A DNA stretch of 64,000 nt from a virus. Position numbers and translations under genes: made by a program. Location of the stretch: the IMG/VR virus record IMGVR_UViG_3300045988_130630. One strand, given 5' to 3'. Below are positions 1 through 61,535 of the stretch, piece after piece; position 1 is the stretch's first letter, and each line of letters opens with the position of its first letter. The notes beneath the pieces were generated by a model. It searched no databases, was not told where the DNA came from, and saw nothing but the letters and a program-made list of their open reading frames with translations.

Positions 1-187
1 CCGAGAGCCTCAGCAACATCAGCAGCGGTAACTTCCTGACCGTTAACTTCCTTCAAATAATTAAGAACCTTCTTAGAATTTTCCTTCATAGCCATAATAA
101 TAATAATCTCCTTTAAATAATTAAATATTTTTTTTTATTTTTTTCTTTTAACCTTTAGGTTATGTAAATATTATAGTAAAAAATTTT

Positions 188-388
188 TTATTTGTCAAGA
201 ATTTTTCCAAGAATTTCTTGAACCATTTCATCAATGGTTGTAATATCATCAAGACTGTGAACGTGGCTCGAAAGTTCCATAATTTGATTCTGGGCTTTAC
301 GAACAGCTTGCGGGTCTTCACTTGTCTGAACGACTAATTCTGCATTAGCAATTTTTTTTGCGAGATTCTTGAGTTCTTTTGTTTTCAT
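188..388 (-). CDS. hypothetical small protein (66 aa)
   Basis: Intact ORF downstream of a promoter copy at about 395-455. No recognisable motifs. Confidence 0.35.
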   Translation of the reverse strand: MKTKELKNLAKKIANAELVVQTSEDPQAVRKAQNQIMELSSHVHSLDDITTIDEMVQEILGKILDK

Positions 389-439
389 TTAAAAATTTTC
401 TTCCTTAATTTTTACAAGTTTATTTTACAAAAAATTTTT

Positions 440-1657
440 TTATTTGTCAAAACATTCCGCCAAAGTGCAGTCGGTAATGTTCTTATCATCGCGGAATCCT
501 TTAAAAAATCCATGTCTTAAAGTGTGGTCTTTGCTATTTTTTTCCATACACTGTATGGCAACTACTCGATTAAGGTATTTTTCAGGTTCCTTAGCAAAAG
601 CTTCTTTAAGTTCATCGGTTAATCCAGAAGATACCGTTCCGATTTCAATAAGATTTCCTTTATCATCATAGGCGCCTAACTTCATAGATGTCTTCCATCC
701 ATAATAATAGCCTTTGGTAACTGGCATATAGTATCTTTCATCATCGTTTATTAGTTGAGACCTACAATTTGTATTATTACAATTTTGAGTATACTTATAA
801 TAATAATTACCACTTAATAATTGAGGATTAATCCAACCAGCAAAACAATGGTCTTCTTCAAAGCAATCATAAAAACTTGGTTCTTTTACTTCCCAATACT
901 GCCAGCTTTGAATTTCTTTACCATCATAATATTTAGTTGCATCTTCAAATCCAATACAAATACAATCAACATAGTCCATTTTTTTAATTTTAATAGAAGA
1001 CCATGCCGGTCGCTTATCTGGAACATATGGAGCATCTTTTTTCTTCAAAACTGCGCCTTCTTCACCCGCAGTAAGAGCGGCCGCAGTAAATTCTTGAATA
1101 TTGTCAAGAACTGCATCTGCAAGTTCCATATAAGAATATTGACTTAAATTAAATTTATCCCAAATGGCTTTTAATACCTGATAACGTGTCCAAGCACCCT
1201 CATTTTGAATATTAATTCCATTATATTTAATAACATCATGTAAATAATAATGAATTAATCCACTGGACTGCTGACGTTTAATCGCTTCAGGTGCTAAACA
1301 TCCCATAATTTTAGTCACATCTTTAGAAGTTTTACCTGGATAATAAATTTCACCTATTAAAATAGTGCCGGAAGGTAAATCTTTGAGTGCTTCATGAATA
1401 TGAGGGACATTTGCCAACTTTTCAGTTAAAATACCAGTATTTGCACTTATATTACGACTAAATAAATAATCATAATGTTCTGTCTTTTCATACTGATACC
1501 AATATCCATCTTTCTTTAATTCAGCAAAATATTCACCGCCATTACAAACAACGGGGAAAAGACTCTCTTTACCATCGGGCAATTTCCAAATTTTCATTGC
1601 TTGAATACAATCTGCTTCTGGAGCATACTTATCAAGCAATTCTTTAGAGAAACTCAT
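440..1657 (-). CDS. ATP-dependent DNA (or RNA) ligase
   Basis: Nucleotidyltransferase motifs: KKDGYW (KxDG, motif I), LIGEIY (motif III), EGAVLKKKD (motif V), IKIKK (K-x-K, motif VI). 405 aa, TAA stop. A promoter copy and AAGGAGG RBS lie upstream. Confidence 0.6.
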   Translation of the reverse strand: MSFSKELLDKYAPEADCIQAMKIWKLPDGKESLFPVVCNGGEYFAELKKDGYWYQYEKTEHYDYLFSRNISANTGILTEKLANVPHIHEALKDLPSGTILIGEIYYPGKTSKDVTKIMGCLAPEAIKRQQSSGLIHYYLHDVIKYNGINIQNEGAWTRYQVLKAIWDKFNLSQYSYMELADAVLDNIQEFTAAALTAGEEGAVLKKKDAPYVPDKRPAWSSIKIKKMDYVDCICIGFEDATKYYDGKEIQSWQYWEVKEPSFYDCFEEDHCFAGWINPQLLSGNYYYKYTQNCNNTNCRSQLINDDERYYMPVTKGYYYGWKTSMKLGAYDDKGNLIEIGTVSSGLTDELKEAFAKEPEKYLNRVVAIQCMEKNSKDHTLRHGFFKGFRDDKNITDCTLAECFDK

Positions 1658-1680
1658 TGATTTATTTCCGTCCTATCTTT

Positions 1681-1735
1681 AAATATATTATAGAAAAATT
1701 TTTTAAAAAAATCAAGTAAAGGAGGATACAATCCT
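1681..1735 (-). promoter_or_regulatory. phage promoter copy (TTGAyw-N17-TATAAT, sigma70-like) for the ligase gene
   Basis: Reverse complement of aaatatattatagaaaaattttttaaaaaaatcaa gives TTGAT-N17-TATAAT. An AAGGAGG RBS follows. Confidence 0.5.
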
Positions 1736-1748
1736 CCTTTATGAGATT

Positions 1749-60689: not shown

Positions 60690-60900
60690 GGAGTTTACAG
60701 GATTTGAACCCGTATACCTTTCTAATGAAAGAATTGCTGTGTGTGTCTAAATGGTCCGAGTGGAGCGACTCAAACGCTCGGCCTCCTGAACCCTAGTGGC
60801 AACAATGAGATTCGAACTCATAACAGCTATTAACTGACCTCGGGAGCGACCCTCAGACATTACCATTCTGTCATCTTGCCAAATCAGGCGTTCTATCAAC
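60690..60900 (-). tRNA. two or three tRNA-like sequences (one class II, about 60812-60895) not fully resolved
   Basis: T-arm signatures GGATTTGAACCC (60706), GAGATTCGAACTCAT (60816) and ATGAG-TTCGAAT-CTCAT with acceptor GGCAAGA/TGTTGCC. Anticodons could not be assigned confidently by hand. Confidence 0.3.
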
Positions 60901-61284
60901 TGAACTACACCCGGAAATAAACTATATTTTTTATTTTAAACTAAATCAATTTCATCTAAAATAAAATTTTGTTCCTTTTTACAATGAACGCAATACATTG
61001 TTTTTCGATGTTTCTTTCCTTTGTAAGAAAATCTTTTAAAATTCTTAACTTTAGGAGCGGTCATTTGTAAATGGCAAACAGGACAATGAAAATACCTTAA
61101 TTGAAATTTCATTATTTATACCTCTCAATCAAGACGATTTTTTAAATCACAATCAAGCATCCTATTAATTAAATTATATTTAAAAATACAGTTAAGGTCC
61201 TGCACCACACATCCGATCTTTGTTCCCCACATATAGGAGTGGGTATGGCCTTTAGGCAGAATCGTATTTGTTATTAACTGCCCA

Positions 61285-61359
61285 TGGTGCCAAGAGGTAG
61301 AGTCGAACTACCATGACGAAATTATCAGTTTCGCATACTAACCATTATATGATCTCGGC
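61285..61359 (-). tRNA. tRNA-Ile(GAU)
   Basis: GCCGAGA TC ATAT AATGGTTAG TATG CGAAA CUGAUAA TTTCG ... GGTAG TTCGACT CTACC TCTTGGC A CCA. Confidence 0.65.
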
Positions 61360-61374
61360 AAAACAAGACTAAAT

Positions 61375-61451
61375 TATCAATACTATTGCTCTACCAATTG
61401 AGCTAACTCCCGATGGCCGGGAGCGAAGGACTTGAACCTCCAACACATAGT
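61375..61451 (-). tRNA. candidate circularly permuted tRNA gene: 3' half (61414-61451) lies immediately upstream of the 5' half (61375-61412)
   Basis: 3' half ...GGGA ACTAT GTGTT GGAGG TTCAAGT CCTTC GCTCCCG G CCA. One nucleotide later comes the 5' half CGGGAGT TA GCTC AATTGGTA GAGC A ATAGT AUUGAUA. Acceptor pairs 7/7 and anticodon stem ATAGT/ACTAT pairs 5/5. Joined in canonical order the halves give an exact 76-nt cloverleaf. A promoter copy lies directly upstream. The 5'-half trailer TGATAA is complementary to the 3'-half leader TTATCA. Confidence 0.45.
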
Positions 61452-61480
61452 TCCCTTTATGATAAAAATTGCTGTTTTAG

Positions 61481-61535
61481 TCTTTAATTTATATATTTAT
61501 TATATAATATTTTTTTATAAATGTCAAAAAGTTTT
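61481..61535 (-). promoter_or_regulatory. phage promoter copy directly upstream of permuted tRNA candidate P1
   Basis: Same motif. Confidence 0.55.

Follow-up and report, generated by a model that had tools for sequence, protein, structure and literature searches.

A recurrent, probably sigma-70-type promoter cassette heads transcription units of a TAG-recoded phage from the ruminant gut

The 64,000-nt viral stretch IMGVR_UViG_3300045988_130630 (the window, by which we mean this whole stretch of DNA at its full length) repeats a cassette of about 50 nt in front of many of its genes, raising the question of what these copies are, which polymerase reads them and why they resemble each other. 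A sequence-only reading had described about 17 near-identical copies, each joining -35 and -10 hexamers to a conserved leader, and had ascribed them to a single transcription programme recognised by a sigma70-type holoenzyme. Our analysis suggests that the cassettes are probably one class of strong, consensus promoters for a primary sigma factor (sigma-70/SigA type), and that they belong to a lytic gut phage of ~190 kb that uses TAG as a sense codon.

Searching the window for TTGAYW-N15-19-TATAAT returned 20 matches by pattern count, 19 of them on the minus strand, whereas dinucleotide-preserving shuffles averaged 1.42 matches and never exceeded 5. The family itself was defined by a 56-nt position weight matrix (PWM) that was built from the copies and scanned over the window, yielding 16 strong copies of 44-66 bits (best shuffle score, 8.1 bits). 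A chance origin of the family is ruled out by these shuffle controls. Named by the first base of the -35 hexamer, the strong copies are 61527, 60609, 41627, 40423, 40221, 38915, 37246, 35352, 33308, 30687, 25591, 21370, 19610, 18530, 8291 and 1715; weaker family members lie at 37205 and 198, and degenerate ones at 12249 and 450. Two pattern matches were rejected as family copies: 7199-7227, which is located inside gyrB with a G+C-rich spacer and is a chance match, and 8327-8356 on the plus strand, where the spacer measures 18 bp and the promoter is a distinct, divergent one. The earlier count is borne out by the 16 strong, two weaker and two degenerate copies on the minus strand, and so is the claim that each copy points towards the downstream minus-strand gene: all family copies in the window are intergenic, share the orientation of the next gene and are followed by a ribosome-binding site (RBS) and ATG or by an RNA gene. 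The upstream open reading frame (ORF) mostly ends 5-50 nt 5' of the -35 hexamer, often with a hairpin and T-run, and downstream of the predicted start a Shine-Dalgarno (SD) sequence and start codon follow at 13-70 nt, or a tRNA or other non-coding RNA (ncRNA) at ~130 nt. TATAAT is exact in all 16 strong copies, while the -35 hexamer reads TTGATT, TTGACA or, as an addition to the two variants previously listed, TTGACT at 8291.

An extended IUPAC pattern, which matches 10 window copies and nothing in shuffles, was present in at least 120 IMG/VR stretches, mostly contigs of 130-200 kb and many of them 68-98% identical to the window, as well as in 50 stretches of GTDB genomes, all of them contigs of metagenome-assembled genomes (MAGs) from ruminant or other guts; cultured genomes gave no match in the GTDB scan. 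On large contigs, exact-pattern copies are confined to one arc of the genome. Roughly 1 Mb of related loci provided 444 unique core sites, and 328 of 346 copies in related loci share the majority orientation. Among these clade sites, conservation spans from ~4 nt 5' of the -35 hexamer to about +16 and is essentially nil beyond, with at most 0.3 bit per position upstream of the -35 and a mild A-richness 8-12 nt 5' of the hexamer. The profile comprises a TTGA(T/C)(T/A) -35 hexamer, an all-A/T spacer with a T-tract from -29 to -25 and an A-tract from -23 to -18, the bases T, A and T at -17, -16 and -15 (95%, 86% and 87%), a TATAAT -10 hexamer, a 6-nt discriminator of A/T only, T at -1 and A at +1 (92% each in clade copies) and A(G/T)AAA as the predicted initial transcribed bases. 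The TAT at -17 to -15 agrees with TRTG, the '-16 region' of Gram-positive promoters, at three of its four positions. The same consensus profile recurs in 285 sites that do not match the search pattern and in 83 sites obtained with an unrelated protein query, and is therefore not an ascertainment artefact. Spacers measure 17 bp in 514 of the 524 family sites of the window and its relatives, and T(-1)A(+1) falls exactly 7 nt after TATAAT in 15 of the 16 window copies. An SD sequence and start codon follow within 110 nt in 290 of 468 unique contexts and 18 more begin a structured RNA; in the shortest case, the structured RNA starts 7 nt after the -10 hexamer, which fits the predicted start. Hexamers, 17-bp spacer, T(-1)A(+1), position and orientation thus support, at sequence level, the sigma70-type promoter proposed before.

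Phage RNA polymerases that work without sigma typically use long, uniform promoters, and a uniform conserved block of ~50 nt resembles what such enzymes read. That the cassettes serve a T7-like single-subunit or a phiKZ-like multisubunit polymerase is nonetheless exceedingly improbable, as two hexamers held at a constant 17-bp distance mark recognition by a factor of the sigma-70 family, and tblastn with approximate segments of RpoB, RpoC and T7 polymerase, admittedly a weak test, found nothing in the window and 1.4 Mb of related loci.

Two parts of the sequence-only reading need revision. First, 'near-identical' overstates the likeness of the copies, since mean pairwise identity among the 16 is 74% over 52 nt; the part from the -35 hexamer to +5 reaches 81%, the final 12 nt just 50%. 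The supposedly conserved AGTTAAGAAAGG leader, present in just 3-4 copies, is mostly the generic RBS or SD context of the phage: AG(T/A)TAAGAAAGG is found with at most one mismatch in just three family copies (60609, 25591 and 18530), its AGAAAGG portion also lies 5' of late genes that have no cassette, and the AAAGAAAGGAG context precedes late genes without a cassette as well. What looks like a leader would accordingly be, in large part, the initial transcribed A(G/T)AAA plus a generic RBS, with the purine-rich tail (+8 to +16) representing largely the generic phage RBS. Second, a 'single transcription programme' is too simple. A second promoter type, represented by 77 sites, has an AAAA-TTTT-TGn spacer (AAAATTTT-TGn, an extended -10), keeps the 17-bp spacing and shares the TAGAAA start context; in the window, it comprises 198, 450, 37205 and the plus-strand site 8327, and in part 8291. 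The other departure is a TTGACA subclass tied to RNA genes: all five tRNA/ncRNA units of the window (61527, 41627, 40423, 40221 and 38915) use TTGACA, and clade-wide this variant has 31 RNA and 14 ORF targets versus 41 and 273 for the other variants (odds ratio ~15). The plus-strand site is the sole consensus promoter on that strand (8327-8430, TTGACA-N18-TATAAT); it diverges from cassette 8291 and is conserved in contigs L251 and L253. After ~70 nt comes a terminator hairpin that works in both directions, so a small RNA may be made from this site.

The window belongs to a ~190-kb phage of the ruminant gut, and this phage is TAG-recoded: once TAG counts as a sense codon, ORFs on the minus strand cover 50.4 kb instead of 38.3 kb, mostly through gains at 42-63 kb and in the endolysin gene, and public gene calls on contigs with identical proteins give an endolysin of 433 aa. 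Eight in-frame TAGs are found in the endolysin gene and up to 10 in tail-fibre-like genes. Exact window proteins are present on ENA contigs of 191-195 kb from many samples; curated phage and plasmid sets held no close relatives, megablast of 20 kb giving tRNA-sized matches or nothing. The host is probably a low-G+C Firmicute. Almost all window genes lie on the minus strand, and Pfam and PHROG scans identified gyrase A and B, an ATP-dependent DNA ligase, a PhoH/PIN protein, an SPFH/flotillin protein, an RNA ligase, an AAA_33 kinase, metallophosphatases, RlaP, an MVP-like protein, a DUF2828/DUF7788 (TROVE-like) protein, a methylase, the endolysin and tail-fibre and tail-assembly-like proteins. 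ARAGORN added nine tRNAs, including a suppressor tRNA(CTA), and a RAGATH-33 RNA is also present. In-frame TAG also occurs in a NAGPA/SPOR protein gene and in homing-endonuclease-like genes, while replication genes have none; the recoded segments are 42149-58382, 8828-10129, 26659-27450 and 61537-63307.

Cassettes in the window precede the genes for the MVP-like protein (33308), the DUF2828 protein (35352), DNA ligase (1715) and DUF5662 with gyrB (8291), the unit leading to flotillin (18530), several orphan ORFs and the five tRNA/ncRNA units. In the window PWM scan, no cassette was found in the tail-fibre block (42.1-58.4 kb) or 5' of the endolysin gene, and cassettes reappear on either side of that block and past both window ends. 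By eye, we saw no convincing distinct late-promoter motif in the sequence 5' of TAG-rich genes. Across the clade, 7.7% of first ORFs after a cassette contain an in-frame TAG versus 25.4% of other ORFs (odds ratio 0.24), corresponding to 0.56 and 3.07 TAG per 1000 codons, in counts that include related genomes and hence carry inflated P values. A same-strand cassette lies upstream in the locus for 388 of 428 tRNAs, 96 of which are within 300 nt of a cassette. Suppressor tRNA(CTA) genes are located no more than 2 kb downstream of a cassette in seven of 11 cases; the one in the window follows cassette 60609 at a distance of 1024 nt, and no terminator is predicted in that interval.

Why, then, do the copies resemble each other? 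MVP-like orthologues keep the cassette down to ~69% protein identity, with unrelated upstream flanks and distal 5' untranslated regions (5'UTRs), and the two most distant orthologues are without it. Genes that come first in their units retain the cassette in relatives (6/7, 8/8, 5/5, 4/4 and 2/2), whereas internal genes seldom have one there (3/15, 1/12 and 0/10). One common consensus holds for 14 genomes. Outside the hexamers, identity is 0.703 within and 0.697 between genomes, a difference that 22 of 300 label permutations reach. Within- and between-genome identity being equal, concerted evolution or copy-and-paste was rejected; the equality suggests instead that selection acts on every copy and holds it to a common optimum.

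The promoter-early stem-loop (PeSL) cassettes of the T4-type phages RB49 and phi1 offer a different explanation, in which the copies are mobile, serve in evolution mainly as homologous sequence at which recombination can reassort small genes, and stay similar through exchange with one another. The parts match, both elements consisting of a repeated intergenic strong sigma-70 promoter with a 3' SD sequence and start codon, often beside terminators and flanking small orphan genes (PMC2839356). In our family, moreover, a strong hairpin abuts ~29% of main-type copies versus 7% of controls, and one insertion boundary coincides exactly with the 5' edge of cassette 33308. These hairpins are, however, site-specific in sequence and lie outside the conserved block, where information 5' of the -35 hexamer is close to zero, so that no conserved stem-loop is part of the cassette as it is in PeSL elements. 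BLAST alignments had seemed to end at cassettes, but counting showed that only three of 55 clusters of homology breakpoints touch one against ~1 expected, a weak enrichment, and the genome-specific signature that exchange should leave is missing. We therefore consider recombination cassettes a very unlikely explanation. At the boundary just mentioned, the window, L001 and L103 carry an inserted 118-aa ORF (33305-33661) that separates the DUF2828 terminator from cassette 33308; L052, L114 and L116 lack it.

We also asked which sigma factor reads the promoters, searching the window and 1.4 Mb of related loci with approximate segments of conserved RpoD sequence; a search by DNA pattern was uninformative owing to overly varied codon usage. 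Four cassette loci encode an RpoD-like protein with 57-70% identity in region 2 and 49-63% in region 4.2. These ORFs of 285-292 aa align to positions 92-369 of a 370-residue Firmicute SigA model, and therefore contain regions 1.2-4.2 and lack region 1.1. They retain RERIRQ (region 4.2) and YA(T/S)WWI(K/R)Q (region 2.4), the stretches that in sigma-70 contact the -35 and -10 hexamers, respectively. A protein-based scan of IMG/VR gave, among the matches listed, many sigma genes on contigs of 104-196 kb with 42-59% mutual identity. Large cassette-bearing phage contigs that encode the sigma include L020 (9603-10463), L051 (2607-3464), L050 (1627-2505) and L171-L185. Among the matches listed, 27 of 80 sigma loci have family cassettes within 3 kb, with up to seven per 6.8 kb, and 17 of 45 sigma genes start no more than 150 nt downstream of a cassette-type promoter.

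The cassettes might accordingly be read mainly by this SigA-like phage sigma without region 1.1 on the host core polymerase, with the additional conserved positions in spacer, discriminator and initial bases allowing it to out-compete the host sigma; the element would in that case constitute a programme specific to the phage and go beyond plain use of the host holoenzyme. The RpoD-like proteins encoded at cassette loci, the identical consensus near the listed sigma genes and the divergence of these sigmas across many large contigs, which suggests an old association, all speak for it. Yet we found no sigma gene in the 64-kb window, in ~10 kb beyond coordinate 1 or in ~7 kb beyond coordinate 64,000, and one cassette-bearing relative of 200 kb has none at the syntenic site. 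The hexamers, too, are the plain housekeeping consensus. The sigma gene, moreover, usually lies behind a cassette itself, so something else must fire first, and the host holoenzyme is therefore most likely to fire the class first. We thus regard a promoter class devoted mainly to the phage sigma as unlikely, if worth keeping in view; recognition of the sigma-70 type is supported by the motif for the host primary sigma and for the relatives' SigA-like sigma alike.

Under the preferred reading as host-type promoters, host core polymerase with its primary sigma would bind the cassettes at infection and transcribe short units, an upstream terminator insulating about a third of the copies. These units would supply proteins of DNA metabolism and RNA repair, small orphan proteins, tRNAs, Y-RNA-like genes and the amber-suppressor tRNA. 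Virion and lysis genes, which have no cassette and many in-frame TAGs, would become translatable only once the cassette-driven suppressor accumulates. In many relatives, the cassette would also drive the SigA-like sigma without region 1.1, and that sigma would probably recognise these promoters in turn and so strengthen the programme. More tentatively, cassette and phage sigma may together form a self-reinforcing, phage-specific circuit that times the change of genetic code, a scenario we consider possible without thinking it probable. The host holoenzyme would fire the cassettes first; one cassette would then yield the phage sigma, and the TTGACA subclass the suppressor tRNA along with the products of the tRNA and Y-RNA-like genes; TAG-free first genes would be translated immediately, and the cassette-less, TAG-laden virion and lysis genes afterwards. 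If true, the promoter class would be the upstream switch of stop-codon recoding.

Several points weigh against reading the cassettes as early, host-type promoters. GTDB MAG contigs carrying the pattern are binned to many unrelated taxa; identifying a host from this binning was rejected, since the contigs, some of 160-175 kb, are probably mis-binned phage. Early promoters of T4 typically carry an UP element and TGn, both of which are faint or missing in the main type, where T occupies -15 in 87% of sites and G occupies -14 in ~17%, compared with G at -14 in 59% at sigma-encoding loci. The label 'early' is drawn from gene content and TAG avoidance, and the clade-wide counts carry the kinship noted above. 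Finally, palindromes of at least 12 nt occur in 54% of spacers versus 33% in a column-shuffle null, an excess that could reflect a bound regulator.

This excess opens up the idea of a composite promoter-operator, in which the palindromic spacer, perhaps with the start region, binds a dimeric regulator of phage or host origin that turns the whole class off, or on, together. The putative winged-helix protein encoded at 25170-25529 is one candidate. Its gene comes first behind the copy with the best consensus, matches a PHROG transcriptional regulator weakly (E = 3e-4) and keeps its cassette in 6/7 relatives. The assignment is weak, Pfam giving nothing for that protein. Moreover, the symmetry centre drifts by 1-2 nt against the hexamers, the null ignores the kinship of the copies, the second promoter type reverses the order of A-tract and T-tract, and a spacer rich in A/T is, in phage promoters, also simply a determinant of strength. 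Joint control through the spacer thus seems rather unlikely to us, and a class of primary-sigma promoters remains the better account.

That early promoters of phages can show an extended consensus is textbook knowledge, and T5 has strong early promoters whose strength is affected by sequence within the first ~20 transcribed bases. Nearest among described systems, along with the PeSL cassettes, are the early promoters of T4, which are read by the host primary sigma, have excellent -35 and -10 hexamers and extra consensus beyond them, and are thought to out-compete host promoters (PMC2988021). Many copies per genome before short early units are a further shared trait. Unlike T4 promoters, however, the main type described here has no conserved UP element and mostly no TGn, and instead carries a spacer of T-tract and A-tract with TAT at -17 to -15. 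The phages are unrelated, ours using TAG as sense, and many of its relatives carry a SigA-like sigma whereas T4 has none. With the recoded gut phages described by Borges et al. (bioRxiv 10.1101/2021.08.26.457843), our phage shares a large TAG-recoded genome, a suppressor tRNA(CTA), cattle-associated relatives and a concentration of recoding in structural and lysis genes. Promoters were not analysed in that study, and the word is absent from its text. Its model of a code switch separating early from late expression had no transcriptional handle; the cassette makes it testable. What is added here is the link of a promoter class with TAG-free first genes and the suppressor tRNA unit. The motif also provides a ready map of transcription units for uncultured, widespread TAG-recoded gut phages of ~190 kb, and the TTGACA/TTGATT split between RNA and protein genes, along with the co-occurring phage sigma, hints at layered control. 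The individual features are listed in Table 1.

Table 1. Cassettes, RNA genes and the cassette-free block in the window
Feature	Position	Strand	Details
Cassette	61476..61527	-	TTGACA; 5' of Y-RNA-like/permuted tRNA-like RNA, tRNA-Ile, 58-aa ORF, intron-containing tRNA-Pro
Cassette	60558..60609	-	TTGATT; exact AGTTAAGAAAGG tail; 64-aa ORF, tRNA-Val, intron-containing tRNA-Glu, suppressor tRNA(CTA)
Cassette	41576..41627	-	TTGACA; tRNA-Thr, 116-aa ORF, two tRNA-Ser genes, 97-aa ORF
Cassette	40372..40423	-	TTGACA; circularly permuted tRNA-Tyr-like RNA within AAGACTT/AAGTCTT helix
Cassette	40170..40221	-	TTGACA; RNA with AAGACC...GGTCTT helix, tRNA-Leu(TAA) (349-nt intron), RAGATH-33, 103-aa ORF
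Cassette	38864..38915	-	TTGACA; counted among RNA units; ~180-nt leader, then PD-(D/E)XK endonuclease gene
Cassette	37195..37246	-	TTGATT, TG at -15/-14; upstream half of tandem pair 5' of 203-aa ORF and Eco57I-like methylase
Weaker copy, second type	37154..37205	-	AAAATTTTTTG spacer, extended -10; downstream half of tandem pair
Cassette	35301..35352	-	5' of DUF2828/DUF7788 (TROVE-like) gene; conserved hairpin in 5'UTR
Cassette	33257..33308	-	5' of MVP-like gene; orthologous position kept to ~69% protein identity
Cassette	30636..30687	-	Immediately 3' of strong terminator hairpin; then 68-aa ORF
Cassette	25540..25591	-	Exact AGTTAAGAAAGG tail; then 119-aa putative winged-helix regulator
Cassette	21319..21370	-	Overlaps T-tail of 16-bp terminator hairpin; then 75-aa ORF
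Cassette	19559..19610	-	-35 hexamer overlaps terminator stem; then metallophosphatase gene
Cassette	18479..18530	-	Unit of membrane ORF, AAA_33 kinase, metallophosphatase, towards SPFH/flotillin gene
Cassette	8240..8291	-	TTGACT, TG extended -10; then DUF5662 and gyrB
Cassette	1664..1715	-	3' of terminator hairpin; then ATP-dependent DNA ligase gene
Weaker copy, second type	147..198	-	TTGACA, AAAAAATTTTTT spacer
Degenerate copy	12198..12249	-	TTGCTT ... TTAATA; 3' of terminator hairpin, then 145-aa ORF
Suppressor tRNA(CTA)	59478..59550	-	Likely cargo of the 60609 transcription unit
Cassette-free block	42149..58382	-	TAG-rich tail-fibre and tail-assembly-like genes; contrast (late) class
tRNA-Leu(TAA)	39564-40000	-	Anticodon-loop intron, 349 nt
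tRNA-Glu(TTC)	59812-60010	-	Anticodon-loop intron, 123 nt
tRNA-Pro(TGG)	60752-60914	-	Anticodon-loop intron, 87 nt

Among the driven RNAs, two labels given in the sequence-only reading are better replaced. Its 'split' tRNAs are the intron-containing tRNA-Leu, tRNA-Glu and tRNA-Pro. The 349-nt intron of tRNA-Leu had no Rfam match to a group I intron at E <= 0.1, and the other two introns are too small for a typical one. Its 'permuted tRNAs' are probably tRNA mimics of a Y-RNA-like kind, whose likely partner is the TROVE-like protein encoded nearby. Rotating the 40423 RNA at its CCA end produced a clean tRNA-Tyr(GTA) in ARAGORN, which returned nothing for the unrotated RNA. In 18 of the 468 cassette contexts, the RNA starts with A(A/G)GACnnnAnCAGCAA and continues with a 3' tRNA half ending in CCA, a 5' half and nnnGTCTTG; leader and trailer covary, giving an end helix across at least seven variants. 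Such RNAs, with the covarying helix AAGACnnn/nnnGTCTT and a conserved CAGCAA, lie at 40250-40388 (-) and 61354-61492 (-) in the window and also in L059, L064, L084, L103, L118, L139 and L152.

Bacteria and phages are known to encode Y RNAs with tRNA-like domains beside genes for Ro60 (PMC4201824, PMC7824862). Like YrlA Y RNAs, tRNA mimics to which Ro60 binds, the RNAs described here enclose a T arm, an acceptor-like hairpin that is closed and a D arm within a long helix formed by their two ends, and have a TROVE-like gene nearby. They differ in their conserved motif (AAGACnnnAnCAGCAA...GTCTTG versus the published GNCGAA) and in their probable partner, a DUF2828/DUF7788 protein in place of Ro60. 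The 61527 RNA aligned to the Rfam YrlA model over its full length (E = 1.5e-5 in a 171-nt search), but its 31.9 bits fall short of the gathering score of 69. The 40423 RNA had no match to that model, and the DUF2828/DUF7788 protein none to PDB sequences. Just 5' of the RBS of the DUF2828 gene, the 5'UTR contains a conserved hairpin, (C/T)CTCTTGTCCAAGAG(G/A), at 35255-35300 (-), which is found at the matching position in L041, L060, L064, L105, L113 and L114 with compensatory changes among relatives, and is a possible site of autoregulation.

The MVP-like and TROVE-like genes are accompanied by a cluster of RNA-repair type (17000-18054, 22959-24344, 27735-28541, 38322-38696 and 39422-39550), comprising the AAA_33 kinase and metallophosphatase (Pnkp-like), RNA ligase, RlaP, a PDDEXK_5 PD-(D/E)XK endonuclease and RAGATH-33. 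In the close relative L253 (3824-6777), a GIY-YIG homing-endonuclease gene splits gyrB, leaving one part of 594 aa and a C-terminal one of 84 aa, whereas gyrB of the window (5636-7546) is intact at 636 aa. Lastly, the segment 19837-20655, which is absent or different in three close relatives, has the look of a moron insertion: it holds the sole ORF of any size on the plus strand (19909-20373), complete with a terminator of its own on that strand.

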